The position numbers were made by a program, and so were the translations under genes. From an uncultured Dehalococcoidia bacterium (GTDB lineage: Bacteria > Chloroflexota > Dehalococcoidia > Lucifugimonadales > GCA-2712585): 64,000 bases of DNA. The DNA is taken from positions 1,051,141-1,115,140 of the forward strand of contig OX638324.1 of assembly GCA_951812825.1 (NCBI GenBank). The letters are read 5' to 3'. Positions 1,547-54,667 of this stretch are shown here, piece by piece (within the stretch, counting starts at the first letter, position 1; each line of letters begins with the position of its first letter). The notes under the pieces are model-generated. The model was given only the letters and a program-made list of their open reading frames with translations. It did no database searches and was not told where the DNA came from.

Positions 1547-1624
1547 GGCCCGGTGGTGTAGTTGGCCTAACATACCGCCCTGTCAAGGCGGAGATCGGCG
1601 GTTCGAATCCGCTCCGGGTCGCCA
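1547..1624 (+). tRNA. tRNA-Asp (GTC)
   Basis: Cloverleaf folded by hand: acceptor GGCCCGG/CCGGGTC, anticodon stem CCGCC/GGCGG with loop CTGTCAA, T-loop TTCGAAT, discriminator G, encoded CCA. Confidence 0.9.
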
Positions 1625-4353: not shown

Positions 4354-5600
4354 CGACGAACCCGACAAACGGAAGCAGCCCGGCACCCGCACTGCCGCCT
4401 CCAGTTCTGGAGAGGGGAGCAGTGGGGTGGGCGCGCGCCAACCTGCTCAACAGCCGGTTCAATACGGCTTTGACCGTAATCGTGGGGATCACGCTCGTCT
4501 TAGTGCTGTGGTTTGCGATTCGATGGATCTTCGAGGCGGATTGGGCGGTGGTGGCCAACGTGGGAGGGCGTTTCCTAATCGGGAATTACAACAGCGACCA
4601 GGCATGTCCCGGGAATGACTGCTTCTGGAGGCCGCAGGTCAGTCTGATGATGGTGACGTTCCTGATGGGGATGGGATGGGGCGTCGCCGGGTCGAAGCTG
4701 ATGCGCAACCTGGCGCTGATAACGGTGGGGGCGTGCGTAGTTCTGGCGTTTCTGCCCTACAGCGCCGAGAGGATGGGGATGGATGTGAGGATGCTGCTGG
4801 TGGCCAACGTGGCCAGCATGGCGGGAGGCTGGGCCTTTGCTCGATACACGAGGTTCGGAACCGTTAAGTGGGTGGTAATTCTCAGCGTGGTGGTGTTCAT
4901 CCTTTCGCTGGTTGTGCTGCAGGGGGCATCGTTCCTCGGCATCCAAGCGGTGGACAGCAGGCAGTGGTCGGGTCTACAGCTAAACCTGATCCTGGCGATA
5001 GTGGGGATTGTGCTCAGCTTGCCCATCGGGATTCTGCTGGCGTTAGGGCGCCGGAGCCACCTGCCGGTGGTGAAGTGGCTGTGCGTGACGTTCATTGAGG
5101 TGTTCCGCGGGGTGCCGCTGATTACGCTTCTGTTCATGTCGCAGCACCTGGTGCCGTTGGCGTTTCCAGCGACATTCCCGAGGAATGACCTGTTCAACGC
5201 CGGCGTGGTGATCATGCTGTTCAGCTCCGCTTACATGGCGGAGAACATACGAGGGGGGCTGCAGGCGCTGCATCCGGGACAGGCGGAGGCGGCACGGGCC
5301 TTGGGGCTGGCAAGCTGGCAGACGACGCTGTTCATTTCTCTGCCGCAGGCGATTCGGAACGTGATTCCCGCCATCGTGGGGCAGTTCATCAGCCTGTTCA
5401 AGGATACGAGCCTGGTTTACATTATCGGGATGTTGGACATAGTGAACATCGCGCGGAAGGCGGTGGAGGGCAGGGTGGAATTCCAGGGGGCGGCGCCTGA
5501 GATATTCCTGTTTGTTGGCATCGTGTTCTGGATATTCACCTACACGATGTCTTACGTGAGCCGGCGGATTGAGCGCAACCTGGGAGTGGGGGACCGGTAG
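4350..5600 (+). CDS. aapM: Amino-acid ABC transporter permease (AapM/BztC-like)
   Basis: EAA-loop GQAEAARALGLASWQTTLFISLPQAIRNVIPAI. There is a 4-nt overlap with the upstream permease. Confidence 0.8.
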   Translation: MTTNPTNGSSPAPALPPPVLERGAVGWARANLLNSRFNTALTVIVGITLVLVLWFAIRWIFEADWAVVANVGGRFLIGNYNSDQACPGNDCFWRPQVSLMMVTFLMGMGWGVAGSKLMRNLALITVGACVVLAFLPYSAERMGMDVRMLLVANVASMAGGWAFARYTRFGTVKWVVILSVVVFILSLVVLQGASFLGIQAVDSRQWSGLQLNLILAIVGIVLSLPIGILLALGRRSHLPVVKWLCVTFIEVFRGVPLITLLFMSQHLVPLAFPATFPRNDLFNAGVVIMLFSSAYMAENIRGGLQALHPGQAEAARALGLASWQTTLFISLPQAIRNVIPAIVGQFISLFKDTSLVYIIGMLDIVNIARKAVEGRVEFQGAAPEIFLFVGIVFWIFTYTMSYVSRRIERNLGVGDR

Positions 5601-5675: not shown

Positions 5676-5751
5676 TGGCTCCCGAGGCAGGACTCGAACC
5701 TGCGACCTAGCGGTTAACAGCCGCTTGCTCTACCAACTGAGCTACTCGGGA
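5676..5751 (-). tRNA. tRNA-Asn (GTT)
   Basis: The reverse complement folds as a 76-nt cloverleaf: acceptor TCCCGAG/CTCGGGA, anticodon loop CTGTTAA, T-loop TTCGAGT, encoded CCA. Confidence 0.9.
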
Positions 5752-10045: not shown

Positions 10046-10107
10046 GATGCGCCTCAGAAACCCGCAAGATAAGAGCAAATGGTGAAGGGCTGAGGTTGAG
10101 TGAACCA

Positions 10108-10200
10108 TGATTCCTACGCCGGCATTATCCGGTTCAGGTTCAAACGGTCGCCCTCCGAGAGGGCCTCTCAGCCTGTCCAACCAGGCTCCCGTGGGGTGTA
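10108..10200 (-). promoter_or_regulatory. TPP (THI-box) riboswitch
   Basis: The minus strand reads CACGGGAGCCTGG...GGCTGAGAGGCC...GACCGTTTGAACCTGAACCGGATAATGCCGGCGTAGGAATC, which contains the conserved CTGAGA and ACCTGA.C.GGATAATGCCGGCGTAGGAA blocks. Downstream, CCTCAG can pair with the thiG SD region CTGAGG. Confidence 0.85.
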
Positions 10201-10213
10201 TTTCAATGGAGAT

Positions 10214-20305: not shown

Positions 20306-21982
20306 TTACATGCGGGTGGGGGCGGTCATGCCCATTAGGGTGAGGCAGCGGTGGAGGGCGACGCGGGCGGCGGCGGTGAGTTTGAGGCGGGCGGCAGTGA
20401 GGTCCGCGTCTGACGGGTTGTTGGAGATGACGCGGCAGTTTTCGTAGAAGTTGTGGAAGGCGGTGGCGAGCTCCAGGGTGTAGTGGGGCAGGTGGTGGGG
20501 TTCGAGGGTCTGGGAGACTTTTTCGACTATCTCCGGCAGCAGGAGCATCTTGCGGATGAGGGTTAGCTCGTGGGGGTCTTCCAAGAGGGAGAGGTCGGCA
20601 TCGTCCCACGCTAAGTCCTGGTCCTGGGCGCGCTGGAGGATACTGCAGATGCGGGCGTAGGCGTACTGGACGTAGTAGACGGGGTTTTCCGAGGACTCTT
20701 TGGTGGCGAGTTCGAGGTCGAAGTCCATCTGGGTGCCGGGGGCGCGGGCTAGGAAAAAGTAGCGGCAGGCGTCGGGTCCCACTTCTTCTACAAGCTCCTT
20801 GAGGGAGATGAAGTCGCCGCTGCGTTTGGAGGCCTTGACGAGTTCGTTGCCGCGCTTGAGGGTGACCATCTGGGTGATGATTATCTGGAGGCGGTCGGGG
20901 TCGACGCCCATGGCGCCGACGGCGGTTTTGAGGCGGGTTATGTGTCCCTGGTGGTCGGCTCCCCAGACATTGATGACGGTGTCGAAGTCTCGTTGGAGGA
21001 ACTTGTTGTGGTGGTAGGCCATGTCGGAGGCGAAGTAGGTGGGTGCGCCGCTGGAGCGGACGACGACGTTGTCGCGCTCGTCGCCGAGGGCTTCGGAGGA
21101 GAACCAGAGGGCACCGTCGCGGGTAGCGAGATGACCTTCGCTTTCAAGTAGGTCGAGGGTCTGCTGGTATTCGCCGCTTTCGAAGAGGGTGTGCTCGCGG
21201 TACCAGACCTGGAAGGTTACGCCGAGGGATGCGAGGTCTTTCTCGATGTGGGAGACCATCTTGTCGCGGGCAATGTTGCCGATTTCTTTGACGGCTTCGT
21301 CTTGTTCGATGCCGGCGAATCGTTCGCCTTCGTCGTCGAGGATTTCTTTAGCGAGGTCGATGACGTAGTCGCCCTGGTAACCGTCGGCGGATAGCTGGGC
21401 GTCATCGCCGAGGATTTCGAGGTAGCGGGCGTAGACGGAGGAGTAGAAGAGTTCCATCTGAGTGCCGGCGTCGTTGACGTAGTACTCGCGGGTGACATCG
21501 TGGCCGGCGGCCTGGAGTACGGCGGAGAGGACGCTGCCGAGGACGGCGCCGCGGGTGTGGCCGACGTGGATGGGGCCTGTGGGGTTGACGCTGACGAATT
21601 CCACCATGACTTTGCGGGGGTCTGCAGGTTGGATGGAGCCGAAGTTTTCGGCGGCGTCGAGGATTTCGGCTACCTGTCGCTGGAGCCAGTGGGTGTTGAG
21701 GCTGAAGTTGAGAAAGCCGGGGGGCGCGGCCCAGACTTTCTCGACAAGGTCGTCGGTGGGTATGAGGCCGGTGAGGGTCTCGGCGATGTGGATGGGTGCG
21801 AGGCGGGTGGCGCGGGCGAGGCGTAGGGGAAGGCTGGTGGCGAAGTCGCCGTGGTCAGGGTTGGAGGGTCGCTCGACCTCGACAGAGGGGATGTCGTCCA
21901 GGGGGAGGAGGTTCTGGCTGCGCGCGGCCTCCAGGGCACGTTCGATTTTGTTGATTATGAGGTCTCTGGCGAGGGGGGGCAT
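20306..21982 (-). CDS. argS: Arginine--tRNA ligase
   Basis: SVNPTGPIHVGHTRG (HIGH region), ...GADHQGH..., class-I anticodon-binding tail ending ...GMTAPTRM. Start trimmed to Met55. Confidence 0.9.
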   Translation of the reverse strand: MPPLARDLIINKIERALEAARSQNLLPLDDIPSVEVERPSNPDHGDFATSLPLRLARATRLAPIHIAETLTGLIPTDDLVEKVWAAPPGFLNFSLNTHWLQRQVAEILDAAENFGSIQPADPRKVMVEFVSVNPTGPIHVGHTRGAVLGSVLSAVLQAAGHDVTREYYVNDAGTQMELFYSSVYARYLEILGDDAQLSADGYQGDYVIDLAKEILDDEGERFAGIEQDEAVKEIGNIARDKMVSHIEKDLASLGVTFQVWYREHTLFESGEYQQTLDLLESEGHLATRDGALWFSSEALGDERDNVVVRSSGAPTYFASDMAYHHNKFLQRDFDTVINVWGADHQGHITRLKTAVGAMGVDPDRLQIIITQMVTLKRGNELVKASKRSGDFISLKELVEEVGPDACRYFFLARAPGTQMDFDLELATKESSENPVYYVQYAYARICSILQRAQDQDLAWDDADLSLLEDPHELTLIRKMLLLPEIVEKVSQTLEPHHLPHYTLELATAFHNFYENCRVISNNPSDADLTAARLKLTAAARVALHRCLTLMGMTAPTRM

Positions 21983-22118
21983 TTGTCTTTTTCTGCGTGA
22001 AGGATAGGGAATAATGATAACAGAGTTGGGAGCGGGGGGGCTATGGGGAGAGGGATTAGAAATGAAAGGAAGGGGGAGATTGCTATCTATGAACACCATC
22101 CTTGGACTGTTTCCGAAC

Positions 22119-22790
22119 CTACATGCCAATGCTGGATATGTCAACGTCCTGGGTGGTTATGTCCGTCAGAAACTCTCTGGGTTGTCCATTAAACGCAGCC
22201 TTGATAATGGTGTTGCTTCCGTTTTCTGTTTCAATGGGTAACGTGCTGTAGGGAATGCCTAGATGCTCCGCAGCCTCCAACAGGTACTTTATATCGAATG
22301 TTATGGCGCACCTGTAAATAACCTCTAGCATCCCTTTGTCAAGAACGATCATTGGAGGGGCCTTATCGCAACCAAGCAGTTCGGCAATATATTGGCCTGA
22401 CTTTTTATCGGGAAAGTACATTGCTGGACCAGCACCCACATATATTTGGCAGTGAGCCAAAGCGTTGCGGGCAAATATGAACGCCTCAAAGTCATTATTT
22501 GGTTCCTTGTTCCAACAAGGGACTATCTTGCTGAACTTCTTGATGAGTGCTCTGTCTCCTAACCGAAATAATCGATCTATTTTAGAACCTTGATATTTGG
22601 TTTGTGGCTCTTGATTCAACAGAACTCGGACGTATTGTGACCTTGCCGATGAAGTCGATTGATGTAATGCCACCATGGTTGCCATTGCGGTTACGTGCCT
22701 TCGAAGATTCACATAGATGATTCCCAAATCCTGATAGTAAGTGTTGTCTTCAAACTGGAATACAACTGGTGTTGCCTTTTCTAGTTCCAC
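22119..22790 (-). CDS. Hypothetical 223-aa protein with Rx4H (HEPN-like) motif, low GC
   Basis: A GTG start overlaps the stop of the upstream methyltransferase (TAGTG). Motif FIFARNALAHCQIY spans R137-H142 of the track ORF (nt 22452-22469). GC is about 45% (27/60 at 22261-22320), against about 63% in argS. Confidence 0.55.
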   Translation of the reverse strand: MELEKATPVVFQFEDNTYYQDLGIIYVNLRRHVTAMATMVALHQSTSSARSQYVRVLLNQEPQTKYQGSKIDRLFRLGDRALIKKFSKIVPCWNKEPNNDFEAFIFARNALAHCQIYVGAGPAMYFPDKKSGQYIAELLGCDKAPPMIVLDKGMLEVIYRCAITFDIKYLLEAAEHLGIPYSTLPIETENGSNTIIKAAFNGQPREFLTDITTQDVDISSIGM

Positions 22791-24220
22791 TATCGCCCTC
22801 CCCGTTGCCAGGCGGTGAGTTTGACGGCTAGGTCGTCCATGGTGCCGGTGGCTTTGAGGCTGTTGCAGTGGCGGCATAGGAGTTGGGAGTTTTCCAGGGT
22901 GTCGGGGCCGCCCTTGCTGCGAGGCCAGACGTGGTCGATTTCCAGCATGTGGAAGGCAAAGTGCTCACCGCAGCCGTTGCAGTCGCCTTCCTGCTGACCG
23001 TAGAGGGTATGCTTGATTTGTCGGCGGGGCATTTTGGTACCGTCGGAGCGGACGGGGGCGCTGGTGTGGACAGAAAGGGTACGGCCACCGATATCCAGGT
23101 TAGTCTGGGCCATGCGATAGCGTATTTGATTGACAGCATTGGGGGAAATGTCGATGCCGGCCCAGCGACGGCCCAGCTTTTCGGCGGCTATACAGGTGGT
23201 GGCGCAACCGCAGAAGGGGTCAAGCACTACGTCTCCTTCGTTGCTGCTAGCCACAATAATGCGCTCCATTAAGGCCAAGGGCTTTTGTGTGGGATACCCG
23301 GTACGTTCTTTAGAATGCGAGGATATCATTCGAATGTCTGCCCAAAGATTTTGGACTGGCTTGCCTTTCAATTCGTCTAAGAACCGCTTACGTCGAATCC
23401 TACCCGTTGGATTTGATGGGAAATGCAATCTGCCTTCAGCATCCCACTGTTCCATCTTAGCTTTCGATATGGCCCATCCCTTTTGTGGGGGAGGATATCC
23501 CTTGTATTCATAGATCAGGTTTGGCCGTAGGGCGGGATTTGCCAAGTTGTCCGTTCCATAACGGCGTCCATTATCGTCGATATATTTGAATGTACGCTTA
23601 ATGTAGTCCTGATATTGCGGGTCGTCCATGGTGTATTGGGTTTCGAATGAAGCTTCGGAGCTCTTGGTATAGAAGAGGATGGTGTCTGTTACAACGCCAT
23701 AACGCCTTGACTTATGGACCGCGCTAGACGCACCTTGTCGACGTTTCCATACAATTTCATTCATGAAGTTACCAAGCCCAAAGACACCGTCCAGCACTAG
23801 TCTCAGGTAACTGTTAGCCGTGGGGTCGCAGTGGAGATAGAGGCTGCCGCTGGGTTTGAGGATGCGGTGGAGTTCCACGAGCCTATCTGCCATCATCACG
23901 AGGTAGCTCATCATTCCCTTGCCATGCACCTTCCCTGCCGCTTCGATTACAGCGTAGACACCGGGATGGGTGTCTGCCAGCCGCCCCATTGCGGCGACGT
24001 CAAGGTCGGAGAGCGTCCAAGTGTCTTTGAAGGCGGCGCCGGCGGCCTTGCTGCCGATAGGGGCGGCGTAGTCGCGGTTGGAGTTGAAGGGTGGGTCGAG
24101 GTATATGAGGTCGACGCACTCGGAGTCGATGCCGGGGAGGATTTCCATGTTGTCGGCGGTCCAGATTGTGCGGTTGGCAAAGTTCATGGTGGTTCCTGAC
24201 GAGGATCGGTTCGTATTCAT
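22790..24220 (-). CDS. Beta-class (Mod-like, N6A/N4C family) DNA methyltransferase fused to a C-terminal HNH nuclease domain
   Basis: Motif IV LIYLDPPFNSN (nt 24086-24097) precedes motif I VLDPFCGCATT (23195-23227), which is the beta-class order. The C-terminus CNGCGEHFAFHMLEIDHVWPRSKGGPDTLENSQLLCRHCNSLK (22853-22984) is an HNH signature. An alternative start is Met12 (24187), which has an AGGA SD. Confidence 0.8.
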   Translation of the reverse strand: MNTNRSSSGTTMNFANRTIWTADNMEILPGIDSECVDLIYLDPPFNSNRDYAAPIGSKAAGAAFKDTWTLSDLDVAAMGRLADTHPGVYAVIEAAGKVHGKGMMSYLVMMADRLVELHRILKPSGSLYLHCDPTANSYLRLVLDGVFGLGNFMNEIVWKRRQGASSAVHKSRRYGVVTDTILFYTKSSEASFETQYTMDDPQYQDYIKRTFKYIDDNGRRYGTDNLANPALRPNLIYEYKGYPPPQKGWAISKAKMEQWDAEGRLHFPSNPTGRIRRKRFLDELKGKPVQNLWADIRMISSHSKERTGYPTQKPLALMERIIVASSNEGDVVLDPFCGCATTCIAAEKLGRRWAGIDISPNAVNQIRYRMAQTNLDIGGRTLSVHTSAPVRSDGTKMPRRQIKHTLYGQQEGDCNGCGEHFAFHMLEIDHVWPRSKGGPDTLENSQLLCRHCNSLKATGTMDDLAVKLTAWQRGGR

Positions 24221-24313: not shown

Positions 24314-26815
24314 TCAGGCGACTTCTGCGGTGGCGGGGGTCTGGTAGCGGGCGAGTTCCTGGACCAGGGGTTGGTGGTCGGGGTGGGTGAGGTGGGGATC
24401 GCGGTGGAGGATGCGGGCGGCTTCGTTGCGGGCGCTTATCAGGATGTCGCGGTCGGCGAGGCGGGCCATTTTTAGGGTGGGGAGGCCGCTCTGACGGGTA
24501 CCGAAGAGGTCACCGGGGCCGCGGAGCTGGAGGTCGATTTCGGCGAGCTTGAAGCCGTCGTTGTGCTCTTCGATGGCTTCGAGGCGCTGGCGGGCGTAGT
24601 CGGAGGGGTCTTCGGCCAGGAGGAGGCAGTAGCTCTTGTGGGGGCCGCGCCCGACGCGTCCGCGGAACTGGTGAAGCTGGGCGAGGCCGAATCGGTCGGC
24701 GGACTCGACCATCATGACAGAGGCGTTGGGGACGTCTATGCCGACTTCGACGACGGGGGTGGAGACGAGGATATCGAGTTCGCGGTTGTGGAAGGCGGTC
24801 ATGACGACGTCCTTCTGGCGGGAGGGGAGGCGACCGTGGAGGAGGCCGACGCGGAGATCGGGGAAGATGTGCTGGCTGAGTCGTTCGTATTCCTGGGCGG
24901 CGGCTTTCGCTTCGGTGAGTTCGGACTCCTCGATGAGGGGGAAGATTATGAAGGCCTGGCGTCCTTCGTTCACCTGGTTTCTCAGAAATCCGTAGGCCCG
25001 GTTTCTTGCCTCTGGAGGGACGTGATGGGTGGAGATGGGGGTGCGGCCGGGGGGCATTTCGTCGATGGTGGAGATGTCGAGGTCGCCGTATAGAGTGAGG
25101 GCGAGGGTGCGGGGGATGGGGGTGGCGGACATGATGAGGACGTGGGGGGTTGTCTGGCTCTTGCCACGGAGGGCGGCGCGCTGCATGACGCCGAAACGGT
25201 GCTGTTCGTCGACGACGGAGAGGGCGAGGTTGGGGATCTGCATAGTCTGCTGGATGAGGGTGTGGGTGCCGATGATGATGTCCAGGTCGCCGTCGGCGGC
25301 GCGCTGCTGGAGGTTATCGCGGAGTCGCTTACGGGTGCTGCCGGTGACGAGTCCGATGGAGACGGGGGGGCCGTCGGGATAGATGGATGCGGAGACGAGG
25401 TTTTCTTCCTGGACTGGGTTATGGAGGCGGGACATGAGATCGCAGGCCGTCTTGAAGTGCTGTTCGGCAAGGACTTCGGTGGGGACCATGATGGTGCCCT
25501 GGAGGCCCATGGCGGCGACGGCGAGAAGGGCGGCGACGGCGACGACGGTCTTGCCGCTGCCGACTTCACCCTGGAGGAGACGGTTCATGGAAGGGACGCC
25601 TTCGGCCATGTCTGCGAGGGTCTCGTTGAGGCAGCGCTGCTGGGCGCCGGTGAGGGTGAAGGGGAGGGAATCCAGGAAGGTTTGGACGGCGGAGCCGGAA
25701 GCGTCTATGGGGGCGCCGCGGGCTTCGTCTTTCCACTGTCGGCGTCGTTGGAGGACGGAGATCTGGAGGAGGAGGAGTTCGTCGAAGGCGAGTCGGCTAC
25801 GGGCTTCTTCCCACTGGATCACGGAATTGGGGAAGTGGGCGTTGGAGACGGCCTTGGGCAGGGGCATGAGTTTGAGCCGGGTGAGGGTGTCGTTTGGGAG
25901 GAATTCCTGAATGCTTGGGGACCAGCGCCGGAGGGCGTTCCAGATGATGCGCCGGAGGGTGCGAGCATGGAGGTCCCTGGTGAGGGGATGGACGGGAAGG
26001 ACGCGACCGGCATATATGAGGGGATGCCCGTTCTTGAGGAGTTCGTATTCCGGGGACTCCATAACGAGGGAGCCGCCGAAGGTATCGACTTTCCCGCTGA
26101 GGGCAATTTTGCTGTTCGGCTTGAGCTGGCGGGCGAGGAATGTGTTGTTGAACCAGACGACGGAGAGATTTCCGGTCTCGTCGCCTACGATGGCGCGGGT
26201 GGCGGGTCTGCGCTGTCTTCCCAGCCTGACCCGGGAGGCTTCCCAAACGGTGGCGAAGATAGTTGTTTCCTGGCCAACTTTCAGGTCGGCGATTTTGGTG
26301 CGGTGGGAGTAGTCCTTCGGGTAACGGGGGAAGTGGTAGAGGAGGTCGCGGATGGTGTGGACCTCCAGACGAGCCAGCTTTTCGGAGGTCTTGGTGTCGA
26401 CGCCCCTGAGGTGGGTGACGGGTTTGTAGAGGGCATCGGGGTCGGGAGGGGGTGGTTTGGGCGGGGAGGATTGTTTCGACGGAGAGGGTTTTCGAGAGGG
26501 CTGGATTCCCGCCTTCGCGGGAATGACGGAGGGGGGCGGGGTCGACGATTCTGCGGTGGGGGATGAGTTCAGCAGGGAGAGGCAGGTGTCTACCCATTCA
26601 GCGCGCTGGTTGGGGGACATGCGAGAGTAGGGACGGGCGAGGAGTTTGTCGGCGTCGGCGGTGTTGGATAGGTGGGTGCGGAGTTGGGCATTCCAGCGGG
26701 TGAGGAAATCGTCAAGGCCGGAGGTGACGGCTTTGTTGTCGAACTTCCTTTGTCGTTCCAGTCGGAGGATGTTGCGGAAGGAGTTGAGCGGGTGGTTATC
26801 TCGGCGGGAGGCCAT
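24314..26815 (-). CDS. recG: ATP-dependent DNA helicase RecG (long N-terminal extension)
   Basis: Walker A GEVGSGKTVVA, DEQHRFGV, helicase C-terminal motifs QLHQFRGRVGRG, and TRG-motif region. Confidence 0.9.
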   Translation of the reverse strand: MASRRDNHPLNSFRNILRLERQRKFDNKAVTSGLDDFLTRWNAQLRTHLSNTADADKLLARPYSRMSPNQRAEWVDTCLSLLNSSPTAESSTPPPSVIPAKAGIQPSRKPSPSKQSSPPKPPPPDPDALYKPVTHLRGVDTKTSEKLARLEVHTIRDLLYHFPRYPKDYSHRTKIADLKVGQETTIFATVWEASRVRLGRQRRPATRAIVGDETGNLSVVWFNNTFLARQLKPNSKIALSGKVDTFGGSLVMESPEYELLKNGHPLIYAGRVLPVHPLTRDLHARTLRRIIWNALRRWSPSIQEFLPNDTLTRLKLMPLPKAVSNAHFPNSVIQWEEARSRLAFDELLLLQISVLQRRRQWKDEARGAPIDASGSAVQTFLDSLPFTLTGAQQRCLNETLADMAEGVPSMNRLLQGEVGSGKTVVAVAALLAVAAMGLQGTIMVPTEVLAEQHFKTACDLMSRLHNPVQEENLVSASIYPDGPPVSIGLVTGSTRKRLRDNLQQRAADGDLDIIIGTHTLIQQTMQIPNLALSVVDEQHRFGVMQRAALRGKSQTTPHVLIMSATPIPRTLALTLYGDLDISTIDEMPPGRTPISTHHVPPEARNRAYGFLRNQVNEGRQAFIIFPLIEESELTEAKAAAQEYERLSQHIFPDLRVGLLHGRLPSRQKDVVMTAFHNRELDILVSTPVVEVGIDVPNASVMMVESADRFGLAQLHQFRGRVGRGPHKSYCLLLAEDPSDYARQRLEAIEEHNDGFKLAEIDLQLRGPGDLFGTRQSGLPTLKMARLADRDILISARNEAARILHRDPHLTHPDHQPLVQELARYQTPATAEVA
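26503..26529 (+). repeat. Repeat module D located in-frame inside recG
   Basis: GGATTCCCGCCTTCGCGGGAATGACGG. Its reverse complement is translated as SVIPAKAGIQP within a Pro/Ser-rich linker of RecG. Confidence 0.8.
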
Positions 26816-54538: not shown

Positions 54539-54641
54539 GGGGCCTCCTGGGTTTAGGATGGGGTAATTATATGAGGGGGTTGGGTTTGGCGCAAATGGGA
54601 TATGGGCTGCGACCTGGAATAGATGTGGCAGTGAACAAGAT

Positions 54642-54667
54642 GGATTCCCGCCTCCGCGGGAACACGG
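54642..54667 (+). repeat. Intergenic repeat, module D
   Basis: GGATTCCCGCCTCCGCGGGAACACGG. Confidence 0.7.

Follow-up and report, generated by a model that had tools for sequence, protein, structure and literature searches.

The window described here is a stretch of 64,000 nucleotides (nt) from an uncultured Dehalococcoidia bacterium (GenBank assembly GCA_951812825.1, contig OX638324.1, positions 1,051,141 to 1,115,140). Between its recG and argS genes lie two genes on the minus strand: gene 1 (22790..24187), which encodes a DNA methyltransferase fused to an HNH nuclease domain, and gene 2 (22119..22790), which begins on the stop codon of gene 1 and encodes 223 amino acids (aa). An earlier note, made from the sequence alone, had placed a same-strand pair between these flanks, and both open reading frames (ORFs) were found there on the minus strand. 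Here, we report the architecture of gene 1, the allelic diversity of its target-recognition domain (TRD), and the genes that follow it in related genomes, and we weigh what the pair might do.

The methyltransferase-HNH fusion and its coupled neighbor

Gene 1 is a beta-class methyltransferase-HNH fusion, as the earlier note had proposed. Its protein was matched by the Pfam families N6_N4_Mtase (PF01555; E, 4e-43; residues 36-366; 148 bits against a cut-off of 26.7) and HNH (PF01844; E, 3e-13; residues 414-456; 49.9 bits against a cut-off of 21.4), and HNH_5 was matched too. Motif IV (DPPF; 24086..24097, minus strand; aa 31-34 of the 465-aa protein) stands ahead of motif I, the S-adenosylmethionine-binding loop DPFCGCATT (23195..23221, minus strand; aa 323-331), which is the order of the beta class. 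The HNH domain (22838..23005, minus strand; about aa 395-450) carries a complete signature, CNGC...DH(418-419)...N433...CRHCN..K, with a Cys4 zinc site; the strings CNGCG, DHVW, ENSQ, and CRHCN were all found, and weak NCBIfam matches to the HNH domains of Cas9d and IscB were obtained. Among 121 family members, the catalytic residues of both domains were at least 90% conserved, and motifs IV and I were conserved to the same degree. From DPPF, the target base of the methyltransferase is probably N6-adenine.

The central block had been described as Mod-like, and this description held: the best PADLOC match was MTase_II (E, 8.5e-61), the MTase_III models matched at about 1e-36, and the Helicobacter pylori Mod structure 6k0w_B aligned with residues 12-339. 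Because all homologues begin MNFANRT, the start of gene 1 is most likely the second ATG (24187), giving 465 aa; the upstream in-frame ATG (24220) would give the 476 aa originally assigned, in whose numbering H419 and N433 of the 465-aa protein are H430 and N444. A protein search with gene 1 returned thousands of methyltransferase relatives, with the HNH domain present in almost all of the best 120. Of 686 phage records, 2 spanned at least 80% of the query, as did 6 of 2677 plasmid records; almost all phage and plasmid relatives end before the HNH domain.

The GTG start of gene 2 (22790-22788) and the TAG stop of gene 1 overlap by one base (TAGTG), and a Shine-Dalgarno (SD) sequence, GGAGG (22797..22801, minus strand), lies 6 nt upstream of the GTG within the last codons of gene 1 (R-G-G). 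This start/stop overlap, already seen in the earlier note, is kept together with the SD arrangement in all three loci that bear the pair (the window and the comparison loci L001 and L058). The search for homologues of gene 2 took in 5.8 billion clusters (word-indexed), 1.84 billion representatives (exhaustive phmmer), all 58 loci (tblastn), and, by pattern scanning, JGI metagenome contigs and IMG/VR. Only those of L001 (80% identity) and L058 (93%), plus fragments of these, were recovered; three loci with gene 2 are known among about 15 billion proteins. Gene 2 had no match in Pfam, NCBIfam, PADLOC, PHROGs (E up to 1), or PDB sequences (E up to 10), and a single-sequence AlphaFold2 model (predicted local distance difference test score [pLDDT], 34.7) was too poor for a fold to be read. 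PADLOC system models run on the pair gave methyltransferase models for gene 1 only and nothing for gene 2, in agreement with the earlier statement that no named system fits.

Compared with L001, gene 2 had a synonymous divergence (dS) of 0.69 and a ratio of nonsynonymous to synonymous divergence (dN/dS) of 0.16, where the syntenic recG and degV genes had dS values of 0.61 and 0.76. For the parts of gene 1 outside the TRD, dS was about 0.7 and dN/dS about 0.06, against dN/dS values of 0.23 for recG and 0.20 for argS. On these rates, gene 2 is a real gene under purifying selection. Because the dS of gene 1 outside the TRD matches that of recG and the dN/dS there falls below those of recG and argS, the module is judged to be under strong constraint and of long standing, with vertical inheritance in these lineages. 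It is not a recent island, and the earlier description of it as foreign is not supported.

TRD exchange and the downstream slot

Gene 1 belongs to clade A, a small group sharing its core and HNH domain, in which all loci with a named record are Dehalococcoidia. In a segment-wise comparison, the N-terminal core, the C-terminal methylase part, and the HNH domain of gene 1 were 86-99% identical to clade A (HNH domains among clade-A loci, 90-99%). The TRD of the window was about 34% identical to clade A, L001 included; its identity to clade B, a much larger group, was 60-75%, and outside the TRD clade-B members are 45-72% identical to gene 1. Nucleotide identity to the syntenic loci L001 and L005 was 0.8-0.9, dropped to 0.3-0.6 in the TRD, and recovered beyond it. 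The breakpoints, at about aa 120-125 and aa 295-310 (window 23830 and 23300-23260), coincide with a GC trough of gene 1. Gene 1 of the window is, on this comparison, a mosaic in which the TRD cassette (23260..23830, minus strand; about aa 120-310) has been replaced by an allele of another clade.

The swap accounts for the low-GC center of gene 1. The term low-GC island, used in the earlier note, suits gene 2 (44.6% GC, with 60.6% for the whole window) and the TRD segment (47%) but not the methylase core and HNH domain, which at 59-60% are near the host value. The interval 22-24 kb is the GC minimum of the entire window. Plus-strand GC skew was strongly positive (+0.1 to +0.39 per kb) regardless of coding strand, with the exception of the bin at 6-7 kb, and came down to 0.07-0.10 only at genes 1 and 2 (22000-24000).

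Across clade A, cores are at least 87% identical and HNH domains at least 90% identical, whereas at least five TRD alleles can be told apart, with identities of 30-41% between them. Allele a was found in L001, L005, and L002; allele b in L052, L004, and L058; allele c in L051; allele d in L050; and allele e in the window. Gene 2 lies downstream of alleles a (L001), b (L058), and e (window), a partner of 411-445 aa with an HEPN domain lies downstream of alleles a (L002), b (L052), and c (L051), and other ORFs without a family follow alleles a (L005) and b (L004). Allele a is thus paired with three unrelated cargos. The methylase-HNH gene stands alone, with no close same-strand follower, in L003, L050 (where a 62-aa ORF is found 233 bp downstream), and L055, and the clade-B members L003, L055, and L056 have no closely following downstream partner. 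TRD allele and downstream cargo assort independently. The pair had been proposed as a unit to be checked for co-occurrence, and it proved not to be obligate: the methylase-HNH gene is also found by itself or beside other cargo, and the HEPN partner outlives the methylase. It is best seen as one combination of a modular set, kept in only three closely related genomes. In related genomes, such modules are found at two hot spots, recG-argS and DsbH-UPF0425.

The alternative cargo belongs to a family of about 21 proteins. HEPN (PF05168) matches at E up to 0.1 were obtained for 12 of 19 members (best, 1.7e-5), one of them above the gathering cut-off. Its AlphaFold2 model (pLDDT, 81) had the HEPN protein 4nqf_A as the top Foldseek match (probability, 0.98), with 1wwp_A also among the top matches; the HEPN domain is at the N terminus, and the domain at the C terminus is beta-rich and matches no assigned family. 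The profile matches and the predicted model together verify the N-terminal HEPN domain. In L049, the closest relative of the window genome (recG dS, 0.36), the methylase-HNH gene at the recG-argS site is internally deleted, leaving aa 10-49 fused to aa 444-475 (L049 6001-6195), and in L053, at the same site, only its last 27 codons are left (4894-4974). Both remnants are followed by an intact HEPN-domain gene, and in L054 the methylase-HNH gene is absent. Because the HEPN partner persists after loss of the methylase-HNH gene, this cargo is not lethal without the methylase, and the linkage is not obligate.

No significant Pfam match was obtained for the other cargos (120 and 251 aa in L004; 151 and 161 aa in L005) or for small upstream ORFs; the 161-aa ORF of L005 (7965-8450) had a weak, nonsignificant match to DUF4231 (E, 0.087), a possible hint of a membrane effector. 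All cargo genes in the slot have a GC content of 46-48% (L002 2650-3885, L051 7375-8652, L052 3490-4731, and L049 6114-7460) in host genomes of about 60-63%, despite an apparently long residence, and gene 2 is alike. The distant family member in L056 (835-6383) is placed immediately downstream of an N6_N4 methyltransferase-McrB(AAA_5)-McrC cluster and an 81-aa ORF and adjoins an IS1595 transposase fragment, a true defence-island context, unlike that of the window.

In the window, the gene order by the ORF list is FakA-like, DegV, recG, gene 1, gene 2, argS, all on the minus strand. The insertion hot spot is bounded upstream by recG (24314..26815, minus strand), identified through syntenic genes of L001 that carry Pfam RecG_wedge, DEAD, and Helicase_C. 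The downstream flank is argS (20306..21982, minus strand), whose true start is probably the MPPLARD at 21982, since its homologues in L005 and L049 begin MPPLARD or MPPFARD. Direct or inverted flanking repeats, tRNAs, and promoter and terminator signals were sought as marks of insertion, and none was found above chance. The genes for tRNA-Asp(GTC) (1547-1624, plus strand) and tRNA-Asn(GTT) (5676-5751, minus strand) are both far from the pair, so that integration here is not tRNA-linked. A REP-like palindrome, ATTCCCGC-GAAG-GCGGGAAT (26501-26524, minus strand), lies within the coding region of recG, where it falls in a proline/serine-rich linker and is translated as IPAKAGIQ; another copy, which differs by 3 mismatches, was found 28 kb away (54640-54663, minus strand). 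By chance, none is expected. A thiamine pyrophosphate riboswitch was found at 10093-10202 (minus strand; 65 bits against a gathering score of 54.3).

Readings of the pair

We infer that gene 1 is a Mod-like single-chain restriction-modification enzyme with an HNH cutter; the single-chain reading is preferred because the TRD diversity fits best with a nuclease that shares the TRD on the same polypeptide. A conserved scaffold with allelic TRDs is typical of Type III mod and other restriction-linked methylases; judging from the literature on Type III mod and Type I hsdS, it marks such methylases rather than orphans. In the proposed scheme, the central TRD would pick the DNA target for the beta-class methyltransferase, a flexible linker would join the HNH nuclease to the methyltransferase, and the HNH domain would cut unmethylated target DNA. 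If the TRD alleles differ in specificity, as we suppose, replacement of one cassette would re-target methylation and cleavage at once, and several alleles might circulate on a near-identical scaffold because a single exchangeable TRD sets both activities. Gene 2 would be a translationally coupled accessory in a variable "cargo slot," independent of target specificity. Most likely it would act as a second-line effector, possibly a divergent HEPN-type RNase, restrained by or acting with the enzyme in the manner of PrrC. We put this combination forward tentatively, as a working account somewhat short of an even chance. A bolder form, which we regard as doubtful, takes "Mod-HNH" to be an unrecognized class of single-polypeptide restriction-modification enzyme, in which TRD exchange is combined with a plug-in slot for interchangeable second-line effectors (HEPN proteins or lineage-specific orphans such as gene 2) to give a two-layer restriction and abortive-infection module of about 2 kb.

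The HEPN assignment of gene 2 in the earlier note was made from an Rx4-6H motif, and the motif is present, as RNALAH (22452..22469, minus strand; R108-H113); the residues named then, R137 and H142, follow the numbering of the 252-aa ORF that starts at an ATG and are R108 and H113 of the 223-aa protein. RNALAH is the sole HEPN-like feature of gene 2. When gene 2 was shuffled, the generic Rx4-6H motif arose in 42% of the sequences, which is chance level, RNxxxH in 0.8%, and RNxxAH in 0.07%. RNxxAH is a stricter form that is common in HEPN families (HepT, Abi2, and Cas13 motifs). The motif is identical in all three gene 2 homologues, which at 80-93% identity are too close for this to be informative. 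Remote homology of gene 2 to the HEPN partner family of the sister loci was considered and rejected on an hhalign comparison (probability, 0.4%). Because sister loci hold an HEPN protein in the same slot and the motif is rare, the reading of gene 2 as a divergent HEPN-type protein is plausible but unproven.

Several observations weigh against the proposed scheme. RNALAH was noticed post hoc, with three close sequences at hand, and gene 2 has no detectable relation to any HEPN family in the Pfam, NCBIfam, PADLOC, PHROGs, or PDB sequence searches. The HEPN partner survives without an intact methylase-HNH gene in L049, L053, and L054, and cargo and enzyme may be independent neighbors. The TRD alleles share a fold and the motifs GRRY, DNLxNP, and RPNLxYE, so that an identical specificity is possible. 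In the window, the pair is flanked by housekeeping genes and does not sit in a defence island, where the earlier note had suggested looking for it. A literature search found no characterized or named methyltransferase-HNH fusion.

A closely related possibility, rather unlikely in our judgment, keeps gene 1 as the single-chain restriction-modification enzyme and makes gene 2 another kind of accessory, for example a regulator or controller, a DNA-binding activator independent of specificity, an anti-anti-restriction sensor, or a non-HEPN toxin. It would fit the lack of HEPN homology by any sequence method, the L004 and L005 cargos in the same slot that are likewise without a family, and the low-confidence AlphaFold model of gene 2 (pLDDT, 35), in which a beta-hairpin immediately follows the RNALAH motif, unlike the all-helical canonical HEPN fold. 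Against it stand the rarity of the RNxxAH string by chance and the HEPN domain of the commonest alternative cargo.

Somewhat less probable again is a solitary or selfish mobile methyltransferase, whose HNH domain would serve mobility, homing-like gene conversion, or non-defence nicking, with gene 2 as an unrelated hitch-hiker in an insertion hot spot. HNH domains are common in homing endonucleases (PMC4081073). In related genomes, the fusion, often alone, occupies both hot spots (recG-argS and DsbH-UPF0425); its cargo is variable and able to outlast the methylase. However, the methylase core and the housekeeping flanks have equal dS, so that recent transfer between these genomes has left no sign, and the gene 2 overlap and embedded SD sequence are kept in three loci; TRD allelic diversification would also mark a restriction-linked methylase.

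A classical two-gene Type II system, with gene 2 as the cognate restriction endonuclease and the HNH tail accessory or vestigial, is very improbable and was rejected on the assortment of TRD and cargo, unless all alleles share one recognition site. Gene 2 is tightly coupled to the methyltransferase and is an orphan without a family match, as are many Type II endonucleases, which typically lack detectable homologues, and it contains a loose PD...DxK string (PD127-128, D166-I-K168); yet the 38-aa spacing of that string is atypical, the HNH domain is under strong constraint with catalytic residues at least 90% conserved and so is not vestigial, and allele a is paired with three unrelated cargos. 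The three TRD alleles with which gene 2 is paired are only 31-35% identical, although gene 2 itself is under purifying selection, and because a separate sequence-specific endonuclease would not tolerate a changed methylase specificity, it is unlikely to be the cognate one.

The pair was rated as a restriction-modification-like module with an accessory effector, and the fusion family is large and uncharacterized. Should the fusion prove both to mark and to cut DNA, it would amount to a very compact restriction-modification design whose specificity is changeable by one cassette; the exchange of TRD cassettes on a conserved, HNH-bearing scaffold makes it more interesting than first stated. It might then be useful as a programmable enzyme scaffold and would illustrate how the specificity of defence diversifies in nature. 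HEPN-type effectors that back up restriction systems have long been proposed and rarely tested, and the variable slot, which holds an HEPN protein elsewhere and a three-genome orphan here, is a small, tractable setting for that idea. The pair is also a cautionary case, in that a short Rx4-6H motif alone is insufficient to identify an HEPN protein.

Comparison with known systems

Beta-class N6_N4 methyltransferases of phages and plasmids, such as gp48 of Streptomyces phage Yasdnil, are 42-49% identical to gene 1 over aa 8-362 and have a clade-B-type TRD; unlike gene 1, they end before the HNH domain. The coupling of a small, co-oriented gene to a restriction-modification gene resembles the operons in which HEPN proteins occur (PrrC with EcoprrI; HEPN-T [PF05168], Abi2, and AbiU2). 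At least 16 HEPN clades, including the PF05168-type HEPN-T, are tied to restriction-modification operons, and a PrrC-like backup role has been proposed for them (PMC3710099). Gene 2 differs from these cases in having the RNxxAH string only, with no profile or structural match.

With the HNH Type II endonucleases KpnI, Hpy99I, PacI, and MnlI, gene 1 shares a beta-beta-alpha-metal HNH domain with a Cys4 zinc site (PMC4081073; Pfam). Those enzymes are separate proteins with their own recognition, whereas the HNH domain of gene 1 is a module of about 60 aa, and the methylase TRD is the sole evident recognition domain.

Gene 1 resembles Type III Mod proteins (EcoP15I Mod, 4zcf; H. pylori Mod, 6k0w) in its beta-class order and in a central TRD placed between motifs VIII and X. 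Like Type III mod alleles, it has conserved N- and C-terminal parts around a replaceable TRD. Unlike a Type III system, it has no Res helicase-nuclease subunit beside it: the neighbors are recG and argS, gene 2 has no ATPase or helicase match, and recG is a housekeeping helicase conserved in synteny. It also departs from Type III Mod in that its nuclease is an HNH domain fused to the methylase and its best PADLOC match is a Type II model.

In its logic, gene 1 is analogous to Type IIC/IIG enzymes (MmeI, BpuSI, and Tth111II), which have one recognition module, so that a change of specificity affects both activities (PMC3817140 and PMC3899748). Like them, gene 1 carries its methyltransferase and nuclease domains on one polypeptide. 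They combine an N-terminal PD-(D/E)xK nuclease with a gamma-class methyltransferase; gene 1, as read from its sequence, is instead a beta-class methyltransferase with a C-terminal HNH domain.

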